64,000 nucleotides of DNA, taken from the NCBI GenBank assembly GCA_044892525.1, contig CM097885.1, forward strand, positions 14,200,001-14,264,000, read 5' to 3'. The stretch comes from Schmidtea polychroa (taxonomy: Eukaryota). The translations under genes were made by a program, and so were the position numbers. Position 1 is the first letter of the stretch; the number at the start of each line of letters is the position of its first letter. Of the stretch, positions 15,033-50,308 are shown one piece after another. Below the pieces are notes generated by a model. It saw only the letters and a program-made list of their open reading frames with translations. It had not been told where the DNA came from and did no database searches.

Positions 15033-15139
15033 AGTAGAAGGATTGGAGCCCGCTAGACCAGGAGCCCGCTGGACCACATATACCCACCCCCCCGACCGGA
15101 AAATTTTTTAAAAATTTTCTAAGTCTAAAAGTACATTTT

Positions 15140-15387
15140 TTTTCAAGGTCAAATTTTAAACAAAGACATATGACTCATCAAGGTCACTTAAACAAAGACC
15201 ACGACTCATCAATACCATTCTCAAGGTCATATGACTCATCGTGATGACTCATCAACAAAGACCACGACTCATCAATACCATTCTCAAGGTCATATGACTC
15301 ATCGTGATGACTCATCAACAAAGGCCATGACTCATCAATACCATTCTCAAGGTCATATGACTCATTGTGATGACTCATCAAGGTCAT
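15140..15387 (+). promoter_or_regulatory. 63 bp tandem repeat (x3 plus partials) dense in ATGACTCAT and TCAAGGTCA motifs
   Basis: Units start at 15193, 15256 and 15319. 8 x ATGACTCAT and 6 x TCAAGGTCA, bracketed by a perfect 21 bp inverted repeat (15057-15077 / 15443-15463). Regulatory role is inferred. Confidence 0.6.
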
Positions 15388-15936: not shown

Positions 15937-16465
15937 ATGTCTCAATTTAGTGAAAATGTTCTAAACGGAATTGTCACCGCGAATATAGTCGACAGCCTCA
16001 ATTTCCTGATCAATCGAACTGAACAAATCATTGAAGGTGAACATATCGATTATCAGCAAATGATGGAGATAGAATCCCTGGAAACCAAGAAGTATTACTT
16101 CAATAGAATATTTCAGTGTCTTTTCGATAAAGACATGAAATGGACAAGGATAATTGTAGGATTCACCTACATGAAGATAATCATTGCAAAAGGTCAACAT
16201 GACTCAGAACATTATTATCAGTGGTCTTTAGAAGTAAGATTTCTTTTATAATCTACATATATATTTTAATAATATTCATTTCTAGATAATCAAGTCCAAG
16301 TTTACCCCATGGATAGAAGCCAATGGCGGATGGGGTGTATTAAATAAACTGGCCTGCAATTTTAAAGAAACTGATGAAATCAAAAGAAAAATGAAAAACT
16401 ATATAAAACTTACAACTGGAGTTGTTATAATGTATATTTTCTGTAGATATATGAATAAAAATTAA
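15937..16465 (+). CDS. Bcl-2-family protein, 158 aa; exons 15937-16233 and 16286-16465
   Basis: BH1-like LFDKDMKWTRIIVGF in exon 1. After a 52 nt phase-0 GTAAG..TAG intron, exon 2 gives BH2 WIEANGGW and a hydrophobic C-terminal tail (LTTGVVIMYIFC). Confidence 0.8.
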
Positions 16466-16976: not shown

Positions 16977-17387
16977 TTAAAATATTTGTGAAAGTCTAGC
17001 AGACATAATTTTCCAAATAGGAGAATATACATCATTATTATCAACTTTATATCCCTGGATTGCAATTGTTATATACCAATTTTCATTTTCTTTGAAACTG
17101 ATTTCATCAAAAGCATCATAAAATCTTGCATATCTATTGTTGAACCATGCATGTTGATTACACGATAGTTTCGAATCTATCCGTTTAAAAACATCATCAA
17201 TAGTTTTGACATCAATCATTGAAAGCGTGCCGGATAAGAATTGAAATTTAGTTGGAATTAGCTTGACTGGTGCAACCAATTTCATATTGATTTCTTCTTT
17301 CAAAAAATACATTTTGTAGTTGTGGAACATTTGAACTGGTTGTACCATTTCTTTAGGTTTTTCGGTGCTTGAAATTTTCTTAGTCAT
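16977..17387 (-). CDS. hypothetical protein, possible OB-fold ssDNA-binding protein
   Basis: Intact 136 aa ORF with upstream TATA and downstream AATAAA. The C-terminal WYITIAIQGYKV..YSPIWKIMSARL resembles T7 gp2.5-like viral SSB strands (inference). Confidence 0.55.
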   Translation of the reverse strand: MTKKISSTEKPKEMVQPVQMFHNYKMYFLKEEINMKLVAPVKLIPTKFQFLSGTLSMIDVKTIDDVFKRIDSKLSCNQHAWFNNRYARFYDAFDEISFKENENWYITIAIQGYKVDNNDVYSPIWKIMSARLSQIF

Positions 17388-17519
17388 CGTGAATAATGAA
17401 TAAATTTAAATGTTACAGGGTTTTTATACCATTGACTCATGCCTATCAACCAATCAGATTATAGCATGTCTTTGTTTAAATTGCATTCAAAATGCATTGA
17501 TGTTGCATTGTCACATGTT

Positions 17520-18372: not shown

Positions 18373-18810
18373 TTAGAAATCGACCAATGAAATTATCTCA
18401 TTTCGAACCTTGTCAACAAATTCTCTATACTCCAAATTTCTCAACCCCAACATGACAACCTTTCCACTAGCAAACACGTTGACACATATAGGGTTATATT
18501 TTAATAGTCTTAGTGCCGGAAACAATTCCGGTTCAAACATACAATCACATTTTTTCGACATGTTATATAGATTGATACTATGTCCCATATCCATAGTAAC
18601 GGTAATTGATTGGATTATAATATTATTTATTCGATATTGTAATTTATTAATATCCAAAGGTTTCTTACATCCCATGATTCGGCATTTACCAGTCTTGAAA
18701 AATATTATCGGATATTTCAGACTTCTATCGATAATTTGCTGGGGTTTCCCTGGTGGGAACCTCATATTCGATACATCAAAATTTCCTCGATAATTTATAT
18801 TTGCTAACAT
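18373..18810 (-). CDS. divergent TATA-binding protein (TBP) homologue, 145 aa
   Basis: Two TBP repeats: IIFFKTGKCRIMGCK, then IQSITVT, FEPELFPAL and VNVFASGKVVMLG (compare IFSSGKMVCTGAK, YEPELFPGL, IFVSGKVVLTG). Confidence 0.88.
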   Translation of the reverse strand: MLANINYRGNFDVSNMRFPPGKPQQIIDRSLKYPIIFFKTGKCRIMGCKKPLDINKLQYRINNIIIQSITVTMDMGHSINLYNMSKKCDCMFEPELFPALRLLKYNPICVNVFASGKVVMLGLRNLEYREFVDKVRNEIISLVDF

Positions 18811-18909
18811 TATTAAATCATTTATGAAAATTAGTCTTTATATATAAATTGAGCACGAGTTCATTAAATCATCGAATATAAACAAATACACATTTATAAA
18901 ATCTTTGAA

Positions 18910-19536
18910 ATGGAATTAAGAAATGATGCAGTATACCAAATCGTTGGTCCGAGTGGTAGTGGAAAAACATTATTTGTTTGTAAATTACTAAAATCAAATT
19001 TATTCAAATCAAAATTTAACAGGATTTATTGGCATAGGGGTGCTGATGAAGAACATGGATTAACTCAATCAAGTTTCTGTAAATTAAAAAACATGAAAAT
19101 AGTAAAGGGATTCGATAAAAACTGGTCCAGCCGATTAAAGAAAGGTGATGTCATTATTATCGATGATTTGTATCAAGAAGCTAATAAAGAAAAAGATTTT
19201 AATAATTTATTTCCAAAGATCAGCAGACATGTTGGTGTAACAGTTATTTTCATAACACAAAATCTATTTCATCAAGGTGGGGCACATCGAACACGTAATT
19301 TAAATGTACAATATTTAGTGATTTTCAAGAATCCTAGAGATGCAACAGTGATTGATTTTCTTGCACGTCAAGCATACCCTAACAATCGTAATTTTCTTAT
19401 CAGTGCATTTCAAGATGCTACAAAAATACCTCATGGATATATATTTCTTGATTTCACACAACAATGTCCCGATGATTTACGAGTAAAAACAGATATTTTC
19501 AACCCAAAAGGTGCCATGGTTTATAAACAAAGTTGA
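18910..19536 (+). CDS. A32/FtsK-like DNA packaging ATPase (Polinton A)
   Basis: Walker A GPSGSGKT, Walker B IIIDD, SRH, ITQNLF and FKNPRD motifs. Confidence 0.93.
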   Translation: MELRNDAVYQIVGPSGSGKTLFVCKLLKSNLFKSKFNRIYWHRGADEEHGLTQSSFCKLKNMKIVKGFDKNWSSRLKKGDVIIIDDLYQEANKEKDFNNLFPKISRHVGVTVIFITQNLFHQGGAHRTRNLNVQYLVIFKNPRDATVIDFLARQAYPNNRNFLISAFQDATKIPHGYIFLDFTQQCPDDLRVKTDIFNPKGAMVYKQS

Positions 19537-19554
19537 AAACCACTATGAATAATA

Positions 19555-20088
19555 ATGTTTCTAAAAGCAAGGGTGAAAAATATTAAGAAATTAAGAAAAG
19601 GTATTAGAAAGACTATTAAAGTTCCAAAAGTTCCACCAACAACTAGTTATACACCGTCTAAAAAACTTGTAACTGAAAATTTCTCTGCAATGAATCTTAT
19701 TTCGAAAAATCCTAAACCTAAACGTAAAACCCGTAAAACTCGTAAAACCGGTAAAAAAGTAGTTAAAAATCATCGCAGTTTTCCATTTTTTAATGCATTG
19801 TTAAAGGCCCCGAGTATGAAAAGAATGAATATATTGCAATCATTCCCAAATTTTGTTGTCGATGATTTACTCAATATTATACTTAAAGTAGTCAAAGGTA
19901 AAATTAAAATCAGTAAATCAAAAAAGCATTTATTGAGCAAACATAGGAAACCATTGTTATCTTTAGTAAATAATAAAAATCGTAAGCAAATGAGGAAAAT
20001 TATATATAAACAACAAGGTGGATTTATTGGTGCATTGATACCTCTGGCATTGTCATTATTAGGTGGAGTTGTAGGAAATCAATCATAA
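19555..20088 (+). CDS. basic core-like protein with a C-terminal amphipathic peptide
   Basis: Lys/Arg-rich; ends QQGG|FIGALIPLALSLLGGV, an adenain-type site before a hydrophobic helix. Confidence 0.75.
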   Translation: MFLKARVKNIKKLRKGIRKTIKVPKVPPTTSYTPSKKLVTENFSAMNLISKNPKPKRKTRKTRKTGKKVVKNHRSFPFFNALLKAPSMKRMNILQSFPNFVVDDLLNIILKVVKGKIKISKSKKHLLSKHRKPLLSLVNNKNRKQMRKIIYKQQGGFIGALIPLALSLLGGVVGNQS

Positions 20089-20149
20089 ACAATGGGTGCT
20101 AATCCTTCATTGCCCGACATTAAATTTAATTTTAAATCTTCTTGTTGTA

Positions 20150-21307
<1,158 letters not shown>

Positions 21308-22312
21308 ATTTTTATACTATTTTACCGAGCAATAGTTGCCCATTAATTCATCCAGACAATCAAGCCAGTAAATTCATGGTCAATCTCCAGAATCCGATTT
21401 CTTTAAATGGTGACTGGGAAGTTGCACTGCAAGATTTTACATTCGTCTACAACACTTTCCCATTTTATAGTCAATGTAAGATTGATTTCAAAAGGAATAT
21501 TGTGAAAACATGTAGCGGTATCTTTGTTATCAGTAATTATGATAAAACATATCATATTCCGAATCAAATATTAGATTCGCATTGCTATATGTTTTACAAG
21601 GATGGATTAAATATCAGTTGTGATTTTAAACCATTTACAATAACATTCGAAACTATTGAAGATGCCAAACGAATGGGTTGCAATAAGTTGAAAAATATTG
21701 TTACGGAGACCGAGTATTTATTACGTTTTAATCTATTTGAAGCAAACAGTGTAATGAAAGAAGAAATCAAAATATCTGTGTCGTATAATGGTGAAGTTGA
21801 AGAATCATTTACCTTTGCTGATGAATTATATTTTGATAAACTTGCTGATTTACTTAAATATTTAAAGTTCAATTGTTCACACATATTTAAAAATTTGGAA
21901 ATTGTGAAAGATTTGATGTTTACTTTTAGTTTGAATGAGGATATTTGCGAAGTTACATTTGATAAAAATTTGGCAAATTCACTTGGATTAGATAGGCAAA
22001 AATATCGAGAAAAATCGACTGGTATACGCAAACCAAGAATATTAGAACATCATCAACAAATGTTCATATATACTAACATTATCGAACCCATAATTGTTGG
22101 TGATTCCAGTGTTCCTCTTTTGAAATCGGTATGGATTGGAAAATATGAACATGATGAAGTTGTCAATATAAATATCGATAATCCCATGTATTTACCAATA
22201 GCAAGTTCATGTATAAAAAATATAGAAATAAATATTCGTGACGATAGTGGGAAACTTATAAACTTTCCAAAAGGTTCAAAAACTCATTTGACATTACATT
22301 TTCGTAAAATAA

Positions 22313-22669
22313 ATGGCTAATTCTGATATTATTAGTATGTATAGTGGTAGCCAATCTGGTGGTGAATTACCATATTTTATTGGTAAACAGTACGGATCAG
22401 GATGGTTGAGAACAATTGGTAGATTTGCCCTGCCTATTCTTAAACGTATTGGTAGTTTTGGTATGAAAACTGCAAAAGATGTTATTATGAATGAACAGAA
22501 AATTTTACCATCTCTAAAAACAAATGCTTTAGCTGAATTAGGGAAAGTTTTACCAGGGGTTGCAGGTATGTTTCAAAAAGATACGCCTCCAGCTCCAAAA
22601 CGTAAAAGACATGGGATATCACGTATAAACAAACGAATGAAAGGACATGGAACTATATTTGCAAAATGA
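22313..22669 (+). CDS. small Polinton virion protein (PW-like)
   Basis: QSGG..YFIGKQYGSGWLRTIGRFALPILK with a basic tail, located between penton and hexon. Confidence 0.75.
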   Translation: MANSDIISMYSGSQSGGELPYFIGKQYGSGWLRTIGRFALPILKRIGSFGMKTAKDVIMNEQKILPSLKTNALAELGKVLPGVAGMFQKDTPPAPKRKRHGISRINKRMKGHGTIFAK

Positions 22670-23889
22670 TTTGTGGTAAATCTGAATTATGTATATTTGA
22701 TAGACCATCGCCCCAGGCTGTAATAGAATTTGGGGCATTTGAGGAAGTTTTTCCTATGAATTCAATTACCGATAGTAGAAATGATATCGAGTTTTATATT
22801 AATGGTTCGCAAACTGAATATTTAGATTTGAACGATACTTTATTGACTGTTCAGATCAAGGTTGTAGATAAAGATAGAAAAGTTTTGGATGCCAATGCAG
22901 ATGTAATACCGAACAATTTCATGTTTCATACTCTGTTTAAAGATGCTGTGTTGGGATTTAATAATATCAAGATTGAGGGTGGAAATAATACATTCATTCA
23001 CAAGGCTTTGATAGAAACTATTTTAAATTACAATTCCGATACTAAAAATACCTGTCTTACACCTATGGGTTATGCAGCAACAGATGATGAAAGAAAAAAG
23101 TGGGTTAAAGGTTCAAAGGTTTTCACCATGTGCTCATCGTTACAACTTGATTTTATGGATCAACCGAAATATTTACTACCGGGAGTTAATGTACACATTA
23201 GATTGAAAAGGTCCGATTCTGCATTATCTCTTACTAGTGCAACTGGTGCACCAATATGTCAATTAGTTGATGCAAAATTATTGGTGAGAAGAGTCCGAGT
23301 GGACCCCTCAGTATTAGCTGGTCATCAATTGGGTCTTAATTCAAAACATGCAATTTATCCTTTAAAAACAAAGGAAATTGTACAATTCGCTATTGCTAAA
23401 GGTGCTTCATCATTCTATAAAGAACAAATATTTGGTGACAGAAGAATGCCTAATTTTATTCTGATAACATTTCAAAGTGAAGCACAATATAATGGATCTT
23501 ATACTGCGTCGAGCTCAATTTTCAAAAACTTTAATGTTACTTCATTGACTTTGTCGAAAAATACTGATTATAGAGAAACATATATTCAAGATTTCGAGAA
23601 TGACAATTACTGTGCGACATATATGCAGAGTATTGTTAGAAATCTGGGTTATTTAGATAAAAATTTGAATTGTGGAATTACTCTAGAAGATTTTAAAAGC
23701 AAATATCCATTTTTCACATATGTTTTAGCTCCGGATTTTGATTTAAATCAGAGTCAACTACCACAAAACGGGAATTTACGACTGGATATAAAGTTTGCAA
23801 AAGCTATTACTGAACCGGTACATGTTATAATATATGGAGTATTTGAAAACGAAGTTCAAATTACTGCAAATAGAACCGTGCTAGTATAA
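22666..23889 (+). CDS. major capsid protein (double jelly-roll), Polinton A
   Basis: KSELCIF, IEFYING..EYLDLNDT, DFMDQPKYLLPGV and GNLRLDIKF motifs; 407 aa. Confidence 0.9.
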   Translation: MICGKSELCIFDRPSPQAVIEFGAFEEVFPMNSITDSRNDIEFYINGSQTEYLDLNDTLLTVQIKVVDKDRKVLDANADVIPNNFMFHTLFKDAVLGFNNIKIEGGNNTFIHKALIETILNYNSDTKNTCLTPMGYAATDDERKKWVKGSKVFTMCSSLQLDFMDQPKYLLPGVNVHIRLKRSDSALSLTSATGAPICQLVDAKLLVRRVRVDPSVLAGHQLGLNSKHAIYPLKTKEIVQFAIAKGASSFYKEQIFGDRRMPNFILITFQSEAQYNGSYTASSSIFKNFNVTSLTLSKNTDYRETYIQDFENDNYCATYMQSIVRNLGYLDKNLNCGITLEDFKSKYPFFTYVLAPDFDLNQSQLPQNGNLRLDIKFAKAITEPVHVIIYGVFENEVQITANRTVLV

Positions 23890-24277
23890 ATGTATACAGA
23901 AACACAAAAAGTTGTCATGGAGTAAGTTGTTTTTTATACTCTGGATTTATTTAAGTAGTTCTGTTCAGGTTAATCGAATCGGAAAACAGATATTGGGAAA
24001 TGAATTTGTTGGAGTTTTTCCTCTTGATAAAATTCTATATTTGAGCAATAATCAAGCAATAATCGTCAATACTCAATCGTCTCATCTTGGTGGAGAACCT
24101 GGTAATATATTCGTGTTCGATCCTATGGGTTTTTATTACCCGGCTTTGTTGATATCAAAACTACAAACAATGGGGAAATCTATTGTGTATAATAAAACTA
24201 TGTTTCAAAATCCGTTGACCCAAACATGTGGTCAACATTGTTTAGCTTGGTTATTGTACAAAAAATTTGATGTTTAA
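23890..24277 (+). pseudogene. adenain-like cysteine protease with a probable 37 nt intron (23922-23958); catalytic His segment missing
   Basis: Spliced product reads MDSVQV..FVGVFPLD..IVNT..GGE[no HW]..FDPMG..FQ..CGQHCL. Confidence 0.8.
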
Positions 24278-25096: not shown

Positions 25097-25769
25097 GTAA
25101 ATTTAATTTATTTTAAGTAGTGTGGTTATATACCCAACCAAAACAGCCCTCCCAACAAAACATGCCTCCAAATCACTTAAGCTATTAGAAAAACAACCTA
25201 AAACTTATACTTTTATAGTATTTTAACCCTATATTTTGAAAACAACCACCCTTAATGACTCTAACTGTTTTAATCTTTAAAGCCTCAAACTCAAAAGCTT
25301 CAAACTAAAAACATAAAGAGAATAGAAAAGAAAATGGTATTATGAAAAAGTAAGAAGGCTACTTGAGGATGCCAACTAGCAAGTTGCTAATTGGCTAATT
25401 AAAAAAAATAAATGAAATCTTAATCTTGATGTCTTGAAGAATAAAAAATTTTATGAAAATAGTAAAACTGCTCTGAGAGGACAGTGGTATTTTTTTTTTC
25501 ACTGTCCTCTCAACAGTTTTTTTGATCCGGATCATTTTTTTTTTATTCAACCTCTTTCGTTTATCAAATCTCTTCCAATATACAAGCTGGCCAGGCTCAT
25601 AATCAGAATCAATTCGATAATAGCAGCACACCTTATTATTCGCTTCTCGCTCGAATACGATTTCATCGGCGTTTTAAGTGTGCTGCTCGAAAGTACAAAT
25701 GAATTCGAAAGTGAATTCGAAAGAGGTCCGAAAATAACTGAGAAATAAATGTGCACATTAAAGAATCGA

Positions 25770-25845
25770 TCCGGGGGTGTTCGAAAGACAGGTGGCGATA
25801 ATTACCGGTTCGCCACCATCACCCGTTTCAATATTTTTTTTTTCA
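25770..25845 (+). ncRNA. putative structured small RNA
   Basis: GC-rich nested stems (GGGTG/CACCC and GGTGGCGA/TCGCCACC), a B-box-like GTTCGAAAG, and a following T run. Confidence 0.35.
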
Positions 25846-25999
25846 TATTTATGTTTAAAAAATAATTAATTAATAAAAAAATAAAATAAAATAAAATAAA
25901 TAAAATAAAATATACAAGTACTTTATAAATATAAGATACCCACACTATTTTCAATATTATTTTCAAATTTTTAATATTATTTTATGTTGAAAAAAAACT

Positions 26000-26072
26000 A
26001 ACCTCAGATGTGATTTGAACCACTATCCATTTGAACCACTGTGCCAGTCTATTCCCACTGCGCCATCAAGGT
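26000..26072 (-). ncRNA. tRNA-like Pol III-type gene 3
   Basis: A box TGGCGCAGTGG, B-box-like GGTTCAAATCA, partial acceptor stem ACCTTG/TGAGGT, T8 terminator. Confidence 0.5.
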
Positions 26073-26319
26073 TTGAATTTTTGTCATTTTTTAGACTATA
26101 AATAATCGATTCAAGTTCTTTAACTCTTTCCTGTAATTGTTTCATTTTCTTCAATCTTATATCAGCAACATCTACAGCCTTCATATAAAAATGTCGATAC
26201 TTTTCATTATCTACCATCAACTCTTTGATGTATTCTAATGGTTCTTCTTCTCTTCTTTTCATTCTCTTATGTTTAACTTCATTCAATTCATTTCTCATTC
26301 TTTCTTTTAACTCATCCAT
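26023..26319 (-). CDS. hypothetical coiled-coil protein, 98 aa
   Basis: Charged helical ORF with a TAAAAATG start context. Confidence 0.55.
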   Translation of the reverse strand: MDELKERMRNELNEVKHKRMKRREEEPLEYIKELMVDNEKYRHFYMKAVDVADIRLKKMKQLQERVKELESIIYSLKNDKNSNLDGAVGIDWHSGSNG

Positions 26320-26489
26320 TTTTATAAATATTTTTTTATTGGATATATTAATTTTTGGTAGCTTAAGTTAAAACGTTTTTGATCTTAAATTTCCAAGAGT
26401 TGCCGTTGACCAATCTCATTAAAAATTTGTACAAGTACTAAATCGAGTATGCTGATCAATATTTCGTTAAAAAAAAATTTGAAAAAAAA

Positions 26490-26562
26490 TGACCGAAATG
26501 GGATTTGAACCCATTGGTATTGGCAATGCAGTCGAGTGCTATTACCACTAAGCTATTAGAGC
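26490..26562 (-). ncRNA. tRNA-like Pol III-type gene 2
   Basis: A box TAGCTTAGTGG, D stem GCT/AGC, perfect T arm ATGGG-TTCAAAT-CCCAT, T8 terminator; no anticodon stem. Confidence 0.6.
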
Positions 26563-26731
26563 TATACTCAATATAAAATAAGTTGTTAATGTGTGACTAT
26601 TTATTGATGAAATTAATAATTAATTATTCATTTTCTCGACAACTACCACTCAGATCCATTTGAAAATTTAAATATATACTAAAATCAGTACGCTGAATCA
26701 GATTCCGTTGAAAAAAAATATCGAAAACAAT

Positions 26732-26805
26732 TGACCAAAATCGAAAATTGAACCCGGTACTCCCGGTGATAAATTTGAAGCCTATTCCCACTCCGCTATA
26801 ACGGC
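26732..26805 (-). ncRNA. tRNA-like Pol III-type gene 1
   Basis: A box TAGCGGAGTGG, degenerate B box GGTTCAATTTT, ends TTGGTCA like gene 2, with T4 and T8 runs downstream. Confidence 0.45.
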
Positions 26806-26861
26806 TTACATAATATATTTAATTAATCCTATTGTGTGTGTGTAAATTTTAATATATAAAA

Positions 26862-28154
26862 ATGAATAATATAAATCTTAAAATTCAAGAAAAAAATAAA
26901 TTAAATCTTGATTATAATAAAGAATTTACTCATGAAATCAAGAAAAATGATGTACTTAAAATATCCCCTACGTCAGGATCGATTGCAAACTTAAATCGTA
27001 GGGGTGATATAGTTTTTCAATCTCTTCAAACATCAAACCCTATAGATATTTGTAATGCCAAATTATATTATAAAATCGAATTAGAAATTGAAGCAAACAA
27101 AGATATAACCCTAGAAAATAATTTCTTTCCAAATTTATTCTCCAACATGAGATTAAAACTAGGATCATCAGAAATTGAAACTGTTTTGCATCCGGGAGTA
27201 TATTCTACAATGTTAAATTTTATTTTGACTGGTTGTGATTATAAAAACGAATATGGTGAATTAACAGGTTGGATTCCTGATGTTAATAAAGGGGATTTAG
27301 ATAAAGATGGTTTAGATGTAAACCATGGTTACCATAAAAGAGCTGAACTTTATAAATCTAAAAAATTTGAAGGTTATTTTGAATTAAAACACTTGTTTGG
27401 ATTCCTTCAAAACTATAATCGTATACTTCATAATGTTTTTATAGAATTCATCTGTAATAGAGTAGAAGGTGATAAAAGATTGTTCTATGGAGCTGTAGAT
27501 ACAAAAGCTAAATTAAAATTATCAACACTTGAATTACATATACCTGAATGGACATTAAACCCACATTCTGAGATTAAACTCCTTGAAAGATTAAATTCCA
27601 ACAAGTCTATAAATGTAAATTATTTAAATAGAATCTGTAGTGAATTTAGTATGACAGAGGGTTCAACATATTCTATAAAGGTAGCAAATTTAGCATACCG
27701 ACCAAGATATATCTTGATTGGATTCAAAGAAGTAGATTCATCTTTCCAAAAAAATAACAACTTGTTTATTCAAAAGATTGGAGTTGATAATTTAAAAACA
27801 ATCCAAATTCAATTAAATAGTTCTTATTATCCAATAAATAGAATGGAATTTAATATTGAAAATAATGAAAACATATTCCCATATCTAAATTATATTGAAA
27901 CATGTTATGATTTCAAAGTTGAACCGCAATTAAGTTTAGAAGATTTCAAAAATTTATATTCTATATTTTGTATGAATGTATCAGACCAAGATGATCGCCT
28001 AGCCATAAATAATGTTGATGTTACACTTCATGTAACAAAGGATTCTAATTTTAAAGCTAAAGTATATACATTAATATTAGAAGAAAAGAAAATAGAAATG
28101 AAATTATATGGTGGAAAGATTTCAATAATCGAAAATGTTAGGGGAGATTCTTGA
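26862..28154 (+). CDS. major capsid protein, Polinton B
   Basis: 430 aa; LENNFFPNLFS..LGSSEIE, LKHLFGF, RPRYILIGF and QLNSSYYP resemble the second Polinton MCP group. Confidence 0.8.
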   Translation: MNNINLKIQEKNKLNLDYNKEFTHEIKKNDVLKISPTSGSIANLNRRGDIVFQSLQTSNPIDICNAKLYYKIELEIEANKDITLENNFFPNLFSNMRLKLGSSEIETVLHPGVYSTMLNFILTGCDYKNEYGELTGWIPDVNKGDLDKDGLDVNHGYHKRAELYKSKKFEGYFELKHLFGFLQNYNRILHNVFIEFICNRVEGDKRLFYGAVDTKAKLKLSTLELHIPEWTLNPHSEIKLLERLNSNKSINVNYLNRICSEFSMTEGSTYSIKVANLAYRPRYILIGFKEVDSSFQKNNNLFIQKIGVDNLKTIQIQLNSSYYPINRMEFNIENNENIFPYLNYIETCYDFKVEPQLSLEDFKNLYSIFCMNVSDQDDRLAINNVDVTLHVTKDSNFKAKVYTLILEEKKIEMKLYGGKISIIENVRGDS

Positions 28155-28183
28155 TATAATCCCTGATATTTTAACATTTTAAA

Positions 28184-29608
28184 ATGTCTCTAAATAAATA
28201 TTGGAGATGTGAAAGTTGTAATTGTCAAGTTACAAGACATCATAAAGCAAGTCATTTAAAAACTAAAAAACATACAGGAGGTGATCTAATTCCACGAGCT
28301 GGAGGCGATTTGCAATCTTCAAAAACAACATCTTCAATATTAAAACCTTTTACTACAGAAAAATATCCAGGTGAAAGACATTTATTTAAACACAACTATA
28401 CTGGACCAGGAACACGTCTAGATATTAGATTAGATGAAAATAATAATCCCAAACAAGGAGAAGAACCAATAAATAGAATTGATCAAGCAGCTTTAAAACA
28501 TGACATTGCATACAATTCAACAAATCTTAGAGATAGACATGTTGCAGATGTGAATTTAATACATGATTTAAATAGTATCCAAAATCCATCAACCCAAGAA
28601 AAGATTCAAAGAGCTCTAGTTAAATTAGCAATGAAAGGTAAGATTTTCATAGGCTTAGGACACAGTCCGATCACCATGGGTGCAAGACTTCCTAGGAAAG
28701 CAAAAGATGTTGCTTATAAAAAGATTATCGAACAAGCAGACATTGAAAGATCCCTTGAGAATATATCCAAGACTAGTTTACAAACCCCAACAGAATCAGA
28801 AATAAAATATGCAAAGGAATTACACCATGAATTTAGAAAAAATAAAAAATATTTAAAAGTTCAAGTACATGAAAAAGATCAAACATGGTCTGCAGATTTA
28901 GTCTTTATGCCCAAATCATCAGACCCTGAAAAATATAAAATAATTTTAACTGTAATAGATTTATATACAAGATTTGCTTTTGCAAGGTGTTTAGAAAATA
29001 AAACAGGATATTCTATTACAGAAGCATTTGAAAATATATTTGAAGAAAATCAAAGAATCCCAAAATATTTATGGTGTGATAAAGGAACAGAATTTTATAA
29101 CAAAGTTTTTACAAAGTTTTTAAATAAAAATGATATTAAATTATATTCAACAGAAAACGAAGGAAAAGCAGTCGTAGTTGAAAGATTAAATAGAACATTA
29201 AAAAATAAAATGTGGAAATATTTTACTGCTATTGGAAAACAAAAATGGAACAATGAATTGTTACAAAAGATTGTAAATGAATATAATAATGATGTACATA
29301 GTTCTATAAAATTAACACCTTTAAATGCTTCCATGAAGCCTGAAACCATTAAAGTGGTAAATATTGAAAATGATGTTATTGAAAAACCAAAGTTTAAAAT
29401 TGGTGACCGAGTAAGAATATTTAAATATAAAAATAAATTTGAAAAAGGATTCACAGCAAAATGGACAAATGAAATTTTTATTATAAATAAAATACATTAT
29501 ACAACTCCAATAACATATACCATCTTTGATTTAAATAATGAAAAAATATTAGGTAGATTTTATAATAATGAACTACAGAAAACAGATTTTTTAGTCGACA
29601 AGCCCTAA
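28184..29608 (+). CDS. zinc finger, parvovirus-type PLA2 and retroviral-like integrase fusion, 474 aa
   Basis: CESC..HLKTKKH zinc finger; YTGPG and DQAALKHDIAY PLA2 motifs; WSAD, WCDKGTEF and VERLNRTLK DDE motifs. Confidence 0.92.
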   Translation: MSLNKYWRCESCNCQVTRHHKASHLKTKKHTGGDLIPRAGGDLQSSKTTSSILKPFTTEKYPGERHLFKHNYTGPGTRLDIRLDENNNPKQGEEPINRIDQAALKHDIAYNSTNLRDRHVADVNLIHDLNSIQNPSTQEKIQRALVKLAMKGKIFIGLGHSPITMGARLPRKAKDVAYKKIIEQADIERSLENISKTSLQTPTESEIKYAKELHHEFRKNKKYLKVQVHEKDQTWSADLVFMPKSSDPEKYKIILTVIDLYTRFAFARCLENKTGYSITEAFENIFEENQRIPKYLWCDKGTEFYNKVFTKFLNKNDIKLYSTENEGKAVVVERLNRTLKNKMWKYFTAIGKQKWNNELLQKIVNEYNNDVHSSIKLTPLNASMKPETIKVVNIENDVIEKPKFKIGDRVRIFKYKNKFEKGFTAKWTNEIFIINKIHYTTPITYTIFDLNNEKILGRFYNNELQKTDFLVDKP

Positions 29609-30396
29609 AACAAACTTTTCCATATTTCAGCTTCTTCTCTATCCAAATAAATATAATTATATTTTTCTTTCCAATGATTATCAACAAACATATCAAACAT
29701 ATTCTTATCAGGTTCAACATTTGAAAATAAATCATTATAAATCATATTCTTATCACGGCGATCTAATTTAAAAAATATAAAACAATTGGAATTATTTCTT
29801 ATTGAATTTTTATCTAAAGCATAATATGTTTGAGATATATAAATAACATTACAATTATTATGTCGACCTCGTGTAAAGTAACTCTTTTGAATCTCTTGAT
29901 TTTTCATGTTGACAACATCATCAAATATAACTAGATTCTTTTTATCTTTAGGAAGTAAATCACAATGTAAAACATCTTCAGGTTTATTAGAGAATAAAAC
30001 TTGAATTGCCTCCTGCCCTTCTTCACAAATATAATCATTTTTATTACTAATATCTGATTCTAAAATCTTTTCCTTATACCAATCAACCATATCACAAGGT
30101 TGAAAAACTTCTTCAGGACACCTATGTTGATTTTTAAAAATATCAATTATTGCTTTTTTAGTTAATTTATTTTCAAATCCACATTTCAAAAGTTGTAATT
30201 CTGGTTGATTTATGGTTGTAGAATAAAAGATTAAATTATTATAATCTAAAAAATCATCTTCAAGTAACATTCTCAAAACAAGTACATTCTTTCCACATCC
30301 AGAAGAACCAACAATTAATAATCTAAAATTATCAGGAAATACTTTATTATTAAATTTACTCTTATGTCTATTTAAAATTGGTTTCCAAATATCCAT
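29605..30396 (-). CDS. A32-like packaging ATPase, Polinton B
   Basis: GSSGCGKN (Walker A with Thr replaced by Asn), LVIFDD, FTRGRHNN, ISQ and IRNN motifs; ATG at 30396. Confidence 0.88.
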   Translation of the reverse strand: MDIWKPILNRHKSKFNNKVFPDNFRLLIVGSSGCGKNVLVLRMLLEDDFLDYNNLIFYSTTINQPELQLLKCGFENKLTKKAIIDIFKNQHRCPEEVFQPCDMVDWYKEKILESDISNKNDYICEEGQEAIQVLFSNKPEDVLHCDLLPKDKKNLVIFDDVVNMKNQEIQKSYFTRGRHNNCNVIYISQTYYALDKNSIRNNSNCFIFFKLDRRDKNMIYNDLFSNVEPDKNMFDMFVDNHWKEKYNYIYLDREEAEIWKSLF

Positions 30397-30411
30397 TTTG
30401 TTTATTATAAA

Positions 30412-30990
30412 ATGACAACTGAAGAATCTTTGCAAGAATTAATAAATTCAAATAAAAATAAATCAGTAGTAATTGATGGTAAAAAATATTTTATTGGAAA
30501 ACATGTAAAAGAACAAGTTAGAGCCAAGCTCCACGAAGCTAAAGAAGGTGGCATTCTTCCATTAGCTGCTTTAATACCTGCAATCATTGCTGGTTTATCA
30601 GGTGCTGCTGGAATAGCTGGAGGAATTGCAACTACAGTTCAAAAAGCTAAAGAATCTCAAAAGACAGACCTAGAAAAAGAAAAACTACAAACTGAAATCG
30701 ATTCAATGAAGAAGGTAGGGCAAGCTAAAGGGGGAGTGTCCGTTGGAAAGGGTCTCTATCTTAATCCATATGAGGGGAGTCGGCAAAAGTCTCAGGGCAA
30801 AGGTCTCTATCTTGATCCTTATAAAGGTAGAGGTTTAAATGATTTTTTAAAAAATCAAATTTCTACATCTGAATCTTTATCTTCAAAAGATAAAGAAGAT
30901 TTAAAAAAAATATGTAAATCTTTAAAGAATGGATGCCTTTGTAAAACTAAAAATGGTAAAGGATTATACTTGAAGCCCTTCGAACTATGA
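30412..30990 (+). CDS. virion core / membrane-active precursor protein
   Basis: EGG|ILPLAALIPAIIAGLSGAAGIAGG and three GKGLYLxP repeats. Confidence 0.75.
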   Translation: MTTEESLQELINSNKNKSVVIDGKKYFIGKHVKEQVRAKLHEAKEGGILPLAALIPAIIAGLSGAAGIAGGIATTVQKAKESQKTDLEKEKLQTEIDSMKKVGQAKGGVSVGKGLYLNPYEGSRQKSQGKGLYLDPYKGRGLNDFLKNQISTSESLSSKDKEDLKKICKSLKNGCLCKTKNGKGLYLKPFEL

Positions 30991-31012
30991 TACCATTTTT
31001 GATACCATTAAA

Positions 31013-31705
31013 ATGGTATATGAAGAAAGATTAGCACTTTTAAAAAAATTACAATCAGAACAAGATAAATATAATAAAAAAGATACAACTCAACATGCTG
31101 AATCTATAATATTAAATGAGGTAATAACACAACAACAGGGGCCAACAATTAAAGCTATAAAAGAGTTGGAAGATTTCAATGAGCAAGCAAAATTTAAAGA
31201 GTTAGAAGATAAAAAACAAAAAATAAAAGAACTAGAGTGGCAGGATAAAGAAAAAGAATCCAGTGAAAACCATTCTGAAAGTCATTCTGAAAGAAATCAA
31301 AGAAAACGCAGAAGAATTTCTAATGTGGAAGAAGAAGAAATGTTTTTAAAAACAAAAGCTCTTAAAGTTGATCCTAAAATTAGAGATGATTTACCTCCTT
31401 CAATTAGACCCACATTTAATACTAATACTGAAGGATATCAAATAATAACAATTAATAAACAAAACTTTACTTTATATTCAAATTCAGAAAATAAATCACG
31501 TATTCATTCACAAAATGTTTATAATAATGAATATTTAGACTTTGAATTTACAGATGATTTTTATAGATTACTTTGTGGATATTCTTCAGATGATGTTGAA
31601 GAAATTAAAAAATATTTAAATTTAATAAAATTAATAAGAGCTAGTTCTAAAGCAAAATATATTCAAGATTTAAAGAATTATTTAAATAAAAATGAAAAGG
31701 GTTAG
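31013..31705 (+). CDS. hypothetical Polinton protein, probably truncated by element C
   Basis: 230 aa ORF whose TAG stop is completed by the AG of the terminus at 31704. Confidence 0.65.
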   Translation: MVYEERLALLKKLQSEQDKYNKKDTTQHAESIILNEVITQQQGPTIKAIKELEDFNEQAKFKELEDKKQKIKELEWQDKEKESSENHSESHSERNQRKRRRISNVEEEEMFLKTKALKVDPKIRDDLPPSIRPTFNTNTEGYQIITINKQNFTLYSNSENKSRIHSQNVYNNEYLDFEFTDDFYRLLCGYSSDDVEEIKKYLNLIKLIRASSKAKYIQDLKNYLNKNEKG

Positions 31706-49870: not shown

Positions 49871-50308
49871 TTAGAAATCGACCAATGAAATTATCTCATT
49901 TCGAACCTTGTCAACAAATTCTCTATACTCCAAATTTCTCAACCCCAACATGACAACCTTTCCACTAGCAAACACGTTGACACATATAGGGTTATATTTT
50001 AATAGTCTTAGTGCCGGAAACAATTCCGGTTCAAACATACAATCACATTTTTTCGACATGTTATATAGATTGATACTATGTCCCATATCCATAGTAACGG
50101 TAATTGATTGGATTATAATATTATTTATTCGATATTGTAATTTATTAATATCCAAAGGTTTCTTACATCCCATGATTCGGCATTTACCAGTCTTGAAAAA
50201 TATTATCGGATATTTCAGACTTCTATCGATAATTTGCTGGGGTTTCCCTGGTGGGAACCTCATATTCGATACATCAAAATTTCCTCGATAATTTATATTT
50301 GCTAACAT
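49871..50308 (-). CDS. TBP homologue (copy 2)
   Basis: Same as 18373-18810. Confidence 0.88.
   Translation of the reverse strand: MLANINYRGNFDVSNMRFPPGKPQQIIDRSLKYPIIFFKTGKCRIMGCKKPLDINKLQYRINNIIIQSITVTMDMGHSINLYNMSKKCDCMFEPELFPALRLLKYNPICVNVFASGKVVMLGLRNLEYREFVDKVRNEIISLVDF

Follow-up and report, generated by a model that had tools for sequence, protein, structure and literature searches.

Does a Polinton that encodes its own TATA-binding protein (TBP) homologue also control its own late transcription? This question is raised by the stretch of Schmidtea polychroa DNA analysed here (64,000 nucleotides; hereafter the window), in which a compact TBP homologue of 145 residues is encoded at 18373..18810 on the minus strand, beside the packaging ATPase of a Maverick/Polinton element. 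This genome has at least four types of the protein, of which this one is type A.

The element and its gene order

The likely left end of the element (AGTAGA...; 15033..15377, plus strand) contains eight TGACTCA sites. From there, the order is a Bcl-2-like ORF, an OB-fold gene, a 124-aa ORF, the TBP gene, the ATPase, a basic ORF and an integrase, followed by the likely minor capsid gene, a 118-aa ORF, the likely major capsid gene and a protease. The Bcl-2-like ORF (104 aa; 15937..16251, plus strand) gave a Pfam E-value of 0.0023, below the cut-off. The OB-fold protein (136 aa; 16977..17387, minus strand) is likely a single-stranded DNA-binding protein, with a weak Z of 7.3; its domain is closest to the single-stranded DNA-binding proteins of the phage T7 gp2.5/Enc34 type and of ASFV (Z 6.5-7.3, weak), and an atlas search with it gave no usable match. 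This gene is a frequent neighbour of the TBP gene.

The genes on the other side of the TBP gene are all on the plus strand. The A32-type packaging ATPase (208 aa; 18910..19536; Pfam Pox_A32, E 8e-07) is followed by the basic 177-aa ORF (19555..20088), which has no Pfam match and is likely a virion core protein, and by the rve integrase with a chromodomain (20165..21307). The likely minor capsid protein (355 aa; 21253..22320; no Pfam match) is assigned from gene order, and the likely major capsid protein (407 aa; 22666..23889; no Pfam capsid match) from size, gene order and relatives; the conserved 118-aa ORF (22313..22669) lies between them. The copy in the window is damaged: the protease-like frame (23885..24277) is shorter by 8 codons than that of two other copies, and the place where other copies have the polymerase is occupied by part of a second Polinton family without TBP (25434..31704). 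In addition, the integrase frame of this copy contains an (ATT)n microsatellite (20539-20680) encoding a long poly-isoleucine run, the length of which varies among copies.

Of the Maverick/Polinton hallmarks, the integrase and the A32 ATPase are present in the window, and pPolB in other copies and in relatives. The genes for pPolB, rve integrase, A32 ATPase, capsid and protease are shared with Mavericks/Polintons and with the virion module of Beta-class adintoviruses (PMC8502044; PMC8097293). Further likenesses are the AG-ended terminal inverted repeats, which were seen in full copies of 17.3 and 18.6 kb, and a 6-bp target duplication (CCTGTT) flanking one full copy. Some related elements (L043, L085, L095) carry genes for a ubiquitin-conjugating enzyme, a RING protein, C2H2 zinc-finger ORFs or a KilA-N protein.

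The TGACTCA sites, which we take to be AP-1-like, occur 22 times in the window against 5 expected, mostly within a short tandem repeat. The eight sites of the left end are at 15171-15377, and one more, at 17433, is beside the CCAAT and TATA of the OB-fold gene. These sites may form a stress-inducible early enhancer.

It should be mentioned that the TBP locus is found twice in the window, because the block 2686-32509 is repeated at 34181-64000 (29.8 kb, 99.95%) across a 500-N gap. The second TBP gene (49871-50308, minus strand) is inside this block, which is likely an assembly duplicate, and the two copies are counted as one observation.

Fold of the 145-residue protein

The preliminary description had reported an intact ORF with both TBP repeats, the first of them shortened, and had proposed a search with PF00352 and a structure prediction as checks, absence of the TBP saddle being the result that would speak against it. 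The ORF is intact, and both motifs quoted from it were found. The Pfam match was confined to residues 64-125, that is, to repeat 2 (E 5.6e-15; 55.4 bits against a cut-off of 22.9), and the PDB sequence searches likewise matched only residues ~60-130, the second repeat. Since Pfam covers residues 64-125 only, repeat 1 rests on structure and not on sequence.

The AlphaFold2 model was built on 93 homologues and has a pLDDT of 96.0 and a pTM of 0.84. In VIA-align, the model superposed with all of its 145 residues on TBP from yeast and from human (Z 13.4, rmsd 2.4); for non-TBP rows, Z was no higher than 6.6. Every one of the 44 Foldseek matches listed at E 0.001 or better was a TBP-containing structure, and viral TBP models in BFVD also matched. 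A two-repeat TBP saddle across the full 145 residues is thus confirmed at the level of the predicted structure. Repeat 1 is indeed shorter than the canonical one, by ~10 residues before the GK turn (40 vs 50) and by ~13 residues after it, where a 26-residue linker takes the place of one of 39-40 residues.

Residues of the DNA-binding and TFIIB-binding faces

Residues were placed in the register of yeast TBP by the VIA-align structural alignment, and conservation was counted over 93 sequences. F38, F97, F113, N4, E93 and E95 are present in 95-100% of the 93 TBP-family sequences, and the kept yeast equivalents are N69 (N4), F116 (F38), F190 (F97), F207 (F113), P191 (P98), E186 (E93) and E188 (E95), at 90-100%. 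Three of the four DNA-kinking phenylalanines of canonical TBP are therefore present as F38, F97 and F113, and the equivalent of F99 is missing, there being no aromatic residue at positions 22-25. The C-lobe stirrup glutamates for TFIIB are kept: E93 and E95 occur in 97% and 99% of the 93 sequences, and in 89 and 100 of 101 wider representatives, respectively. In the available text of PMC7221094, two glutamates of TBP are given as the TFIIB contact.

The helices H1 and H2 of repeat 1 are not present in the model. Residues 48-62, in the region of the basic helix H2 of the N-lobe, are free of helix. The median distance between anchors is 67 residues in canonical TBP, 58 in the deeper branches of the family and 52 in the group of the window's protein; because the deeper branches keep a longer linker, complete loss of H2 is a trait of the subclade. 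The basic cluster of the N-lobe (loop 2 and helix H2) is described as the common site for TFIIA, TAF1, Mot1 and Brf1 (available text of PMC7221094).

On the DNA face, family-wide changes are found at V71 (to N), V122 (to R), T124 (to M), N159 (to S/T), V161 (to T/S), I194 (to R), V203 (to C) and L205 (to N) in yeast numbering, in addition to the loss of F99. The corresponding residues of the window's protein are N6, R44, M46, S68, T70, R101, C109 and N111. The last three are at the positions of I194, V203 and L205; R101 and C109 are less fixed in the wider set, being found in 66 and 69 of the 101 representatives. Changes of these three residues in yeast TBP (mutant TBPm3) alter the specificity and act on base pair 2, according to the available text of PMC1636458, in which the N-lobe is also said to touch the 3' half of the TATA box, where C is disfavoured.

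Cellular and archaeal TBPs (PF00352; PDB 7o4i_O, 5fur_A, 1mp9_B) are like the element protein in having a two-repeat saddle over the whole length. However, the identity to cellular TBP is ~23%, the lengths are ~180 and 145 residues, the element gene is intronless and lies on a mobile element, and H1, H2 and F99 of cellular TBP have no counterpart in the model. The protein is a member of the TBP family, yet it is not a canonical TBP.

Copies, selection and distribution

A one-off, decaying host capture with dN/dS near 1 among copies had been named at the outset as the other result that would speak against the description, a phylogeny and a Polinton-wide survey being proposed as checks. The genome contains at least 150 intact copies: of 4149 candidates ranked by similarity to the window's TBP gene, the best 150 were all full length, stop-free and 97-100% identical, so that this number is a lower bound. 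Twenty loci picked by Pfam search gave three further TBP types, 51-62% identical to that of the window, each head-to-head with an ATPase (79-97% identical). An additional variant appeared among 30 loci picked via the ATPase, all 30 of which carry a TBP gene. Several divergent TBP paralogues (L113-L118) were also seen in this genome.

Between types, dN/dS was 0.10-0.35 in 12 of 13 pairs, the thirteenth being saturated. Within types, it was 0.13 for type A (29 top-scoring copies, a biased sample), 0.64 for type C (10 copies), and 0.18 and 0.66 from two single pairs, the values of 0.64-0.66 belonging to types C and D. Such high values within a type are expected where integrated copies drift. Among types A, C and D, dS was 0.33-0.58 for the ATPase and from 2.0 to saturated for the adjoining TBP gene; because the latter is far higher, exchange of the TBP arm between Polinton lineages is suggested.

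The family is widespread. A set of 109 homologues, mostly of 140-180 aa, was collected, and a profile search added many more representatives. Some representatives of the family (P0181, P0245) have extra repeats or long N-terminal additions. When the best 80 of 176 metagenome matches were examined, 41 carried a Polinton hallmark gene, as did 28 of the 34 loci of at least 3 kb among them. The single contig found through the ATPase alone (L232) also has a TBP gene; filed in a bacterial genome bin, it is a Polinton fragment (PLA2, TBP, ATPase, integrase) of a mis-binned eukaryotic element. Scans of viral contigs gave one giant-virus-like TBP and no matches to the ATPase and capsid queries, and the phage collection gave no match.

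In a tree of 44 rows, the 31 family rows were separated from the 13 cellular, host and other rows with support of 100/99; for 18 of the 31, which are representatives, the genomic context is unknown, and one giant-virus-like TBP was included. The host TBP-family genes are 23-34% identical to the element protein in local alignments. Judged from these sequence comparisons, the gene is a conserved TBP gene family of a broad Maverick/Polinton lineage under purifying selection. Of the two results named beforehand as speaking against the description, neither was obtained.

The intergenic spacer and the YATAAAC word

The preliminary description had placed the TBP gene head-to-head with the virion gene block across a spacer with several TATA(A)A motifs. 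This layout is found here, in 49 of 50 and in 30 of 30 loci of this genome. Elsewhere, among the 25 relatives with an ATPase on the contig, only 2 are head-to-head, 22 having the ATPase downstream on the same strand and 1 having it upstream; the head-to-head arrangement was therefore rejected as a conserved design. The 99-bp spacer (18811..18909) does contain the motifs, TATAWA being matched nine times, with overlaps, where shuffled sequence gave 1.55 (p 0.005). However, these collapse into three clusters in DNA of 81% A+T, and their count is therefore weak evidence. The informative site is a single non-canonical one, TATAAACA (18877..18884, plus strand), 33 nt before the ATPase start, which is a candidate late promoter, recurs before several genes and is invariant in 27 copies, whereas the other two TATA clusters vary. 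The spacers of the four TBP types are alike in little but the core ATATAAACA, located 33-35 nt before the ATPase start and present in 29 of the 30 ATPase-picked loci. On the minus strand, the canonical TATA TATATAAA (18837..18846), 27-34 nt before the TBP start, is likely an early promoter read by host TBP.

Further sites precede other genes of the window, all on the plus strand. TATAAACA is found again at 19522..19529, 33 nt before the 177-aa ORF, and at 22624..22631, 42 nt upstream of the start of the major capsid gene. The stretch 20005..20091, which lies ahead of the integrase region, has TATAAACA at 20005 and CATAAACA at 20084, and GATAAACA at 21233 and TATAAACT at 22257 accompany the minor capsid gene and the 118-aa ORF, respectively. 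Counted across the entire window, YATAAACA is at the level of chance (16 vs 16.4).

The word ATAAAC was counted at -25 to -60 in the metagenome loci, from which near-duplicates and two ATPase rows of less than 30% identity had been removed; the start codons were assigned automatically, some with uncertainty. ATAAAC precedes the ATPase in 21 of 22 distinct relatives (shuffled mean 0.71, maximum 5), the minor capsid gene in 9 of 13 and the major capsid gene in 6 of 10. It precedes the integrase in 3 of 12, the OB-fold gene in 2 of 13 and the 118-aa ORF in 1 of 6, and was not found before the protease (0/5) or the polymerase (0/3) of these loci. The ATPase of L232 has no ATAAAC site upstream. The ATPases of the relatives carrying the word are 35-75% identical to that of the window. 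Before the TBP gene, ATAAAC is found in only 2 of 57 loci, and canonical TATAWAWR in 25 of the 57 (3.65 in shuffles). In an unbiased word count, ATAAAC ranked first, with 36/45 vs 2/57 at the TBP gene. At position 7 of YATAAAN, 36 of 42 late sites have C, against none of the 23 TBP-gene sites. In seven virion blocks, YATAAAC occurs 60 times in sense and 5 times in antisense orientation. All 31 upstream regions with TAAACA contain ATAAACA, clustered 31-50 nt before the start codons.

The second Polinton family of this genome, which served as the one TBP-less control family, gave no match to the TBP profile in eight 20-kb stretches (best E 0.3), and no ATAAAC site precedes any of the 10 ORFs checked. 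Since the loci were found via the TBP gene and the comparison includes no TBP-less elements of the same capsid lineage, the motif and the TBP gene may simply share ancestry. Even so qualified, YATAAAC is a strong candidate for a late-promoter word, and its placement fits the control of late genes.

The second family (L184 and L185; window 25434-31704) has a PLA2-integrase fusion and at least 145 copies of its ATPase. Directly 5' of most of its start codons is an A-rich ...AAA or ...TAA, a context reminiscent of the poxvirus late motif TAAATG. Contigs from presumed-RNA runs cover the TBP and virion genes; these are assembled contigs, from which transcription starts are not readable, and they do not enter the evidence given here. 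One such run shows poly(A) loose ends, and one contig begins at 18900, 23 nt after the motif, the letters ahead of this start being presumably adapter-like.

Proposed mechanism

A well-conserved, small TBP is combined with YATAAAC in front of most packaging and capsid genes, and therefore the element likely brings its own switch. The conserved TBP-fold protein is probably the late-promoter factor of the element, predicted to bind YATAAAC and to recruit host TFIIB and RNA polymerase II (Pol II). Starting from the fold, conservation, selection, residue pattern and motif placement observed above, we infer the later steps as follows. Host TBP would transcribe the left-arm genes early, the TBP gene included, from canonical TATA boxes. 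The viral TBP would then bind YATAAAC and bend the DNA with its three phenylalanines, the eight changes of the DNA face (N6, R44, M46, S68, T70, R101, C109 and N111) shifting its preference towards a TATA whose position 7 is C. The kept stirrup with E93 and E95 is proposed to dock host TFIIB, because no TFIIB gene was found in the elements, and Pol II would then start on the genes for packaging and capsid. Having lost the N-lobe helix, to which TFIIA, TAF1, Mot1 and Brf1 bind in the cellular protein, the viral TBP would be free from these factors.

For a TFIIB-like gene, there was no tblastn match in 125 stretches from TBP-bearing loci and no Pfam match, by which a very divergent one could be missed; for other viral pre-initiation subunits, there was no Pfam match among 44 ORFs, most of which have no Pfam match at all. 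More tentative, with a confidence slightly short of even, is the wider reading that an old and broad Maverick lineage has a single-protein switch from early to late genes, in which a minimal TBP of altered specificity would act on its private word YATAAAC with host TFIIB and Pol II and with no other viral factor, would escape the regulators of host TBP and would be swapped as a cassette.

Several observations count against this mechanism. One phenylalanine is missing, and I194, V203 and L205 face base pair 2 and not base pair 7. The motif is missing before the protease, most integrase and 118-aa genes, and the L232 ATPase. The within-type dN/dS of 0.64-0.66 in types C and D also counts against it, as do the chance-level number of YATAAACA in the window and the restriction of the TBP-less control to one family.

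YATAAAC might instead be the site of a host factor, either TBP/TFIID or a protein of the Forkhead group, the viral TBP doing something else; we consider this unlikely. The Forkhead consensus RYAAAYA fits ATAAACA, but its core favours G where the sites have A, and ATAAACA was nevertheless the form in 31 of 31 regions with TAAACA. The motif is also fixed in strand and clustered at 31-50 nt before start codons, and in promoters read by host TBP one would not expect C to be fixed at position 7 as it is in the late sites (36/42 vs 0/23 in TBP-gene sites). On the other hand, there is a crystal structure of cellular TBP on a TATA variant with C at this position, the C(-25) TATA of PDB 1qn3 according to the title of that entry, and the link between motif and gene depends on one TBP-less family. 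A decoy or repressor, which would occupy TATA boxes or tie up host TFIIB and so damp host or early viral transcription, seems improbable. With the TFIIB glutamates kept and the TFIIA-side surface and one phenylalanine lost, non-productive complexes could be formed; such a role, however, leaves unexplained a dedicated, non-canonical word before the virion genes of elements with ATPases only 35-75% identical to that of the window.

The chances are slight that binding of the protein to element DNA serves replication or packaging and not transcription. Its gene often adjoins the OB-fold, SSB-like gene and the ATPase, and Rep initiators show a weak likeness to the TBP saddle (Z 6.6), but the glutamates of the TFIIB contact are near-invariant and the motif sits before genes and not at the element ends. 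The view that a host TBP gene was captured recently and is decaying can hardly be maintained, although the within-type dN/dS of 0.64-0.66 in two types would suit it, many genomic copies being in drift. It is refuted by the local identity of only 23-34% to host TBP-family genes, the separate branch (100/99), the between-type dN/dS of 0.10-0.35, and the spread of the gene over many unrelated contigs.

Comparison with known systems

The proposed late-promoter factor has a close working parallel in beta- and gamma-herpesviruses, where a viral TBP mimic and a modified TATA drive late genes (available texts of PMC6541308 and PMC12529657). These mimics (KSHV ORF24, EBV BcRF1, HCMV UL87) have in common with the Polinton system a viral TBP-like factor, a modified TATA before structural genes and host Pol II. 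As described in these texts, they are large, belong to a six-member viral complex and bind Pol II directly, whereas the Polinton protein has 145 residues and consists of the saddle only; no genes for partners were found in the elements. The late word is TATT in herpesviruses and YATAAAC in Polintons. The ORF24 model is described as incompatible with TFIIB binding (available text of PMC12529657), whereas the Polinton protein keeps the TFIIB stirrup. By analogy, the latter seems to resemble the herpesvirus late TBP in its working, and it is not a member of that system.

The TBPs of NCLDVs are similar in having a viral TBP fold that has lost the regulatory signature of the N-lobe. According to the available text of PMC7221094, they have diverged at the TFIIB glutamates and co-occur with a viral TFIIB; in contrast, the Polinton protein keeps the glutamates, no TFIIB was found in the 125 stretches, and the element is without an RNA polymerase. 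Polintons are not named in the searched supplements of that paper.

For Mavericks themselves, the available text of PMC8097293 does not have TBP among the eight core genes given for vertebrate elements. A 'TBP' label appears in the legend of Fig. 5 of PMC8502044 and in preprint legends, for a related virus and without study, these legends discussing no promoter; the text of Supplementary Fig. S2 of PMC8502044, with maps of animal adintoviruses, carries no such label. Term searches of the available texts of PMC10748475, PMC11161782, 10.64898/2026.06.19.733378 and PMC8097293 returned no mention of TBP or TATA. A literature search with subscription journals and Repbase outside its scope found no study of a Polinton TBP gene or motif, and the Maverick literature checked contains nothing on how the genes are transcribed. 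Mavericks encode capsids, yet particles have not been observed (available text of PMC8097293). With a dedicated TBP and a defined word as promoter, they would have a late programme that is regulated as in true viruses. Furthermore, a TBP of 145 residues in which only the contacts to DNA and TFIIB are kept would represent a core transcription factor in naturally minimal form, and the viral TBP and YATAAAC are a possible orthogonal pair of TBP and promoter.

TFIIB-like genes of the host genome

Multi-copy TFIIB-like genes were considered as partners of the element and rejected: the four checked are TFIIB paralogues (33%) and lie near Polinton fragments only. At least 13 near-identical, intronless paralogues of this kind (~300 aa, 33% to TFIIB; L233-L236) were observed, clustered in G000 at C3:38.2-39.1 Mb and C1:23.8-24.2 Mb.
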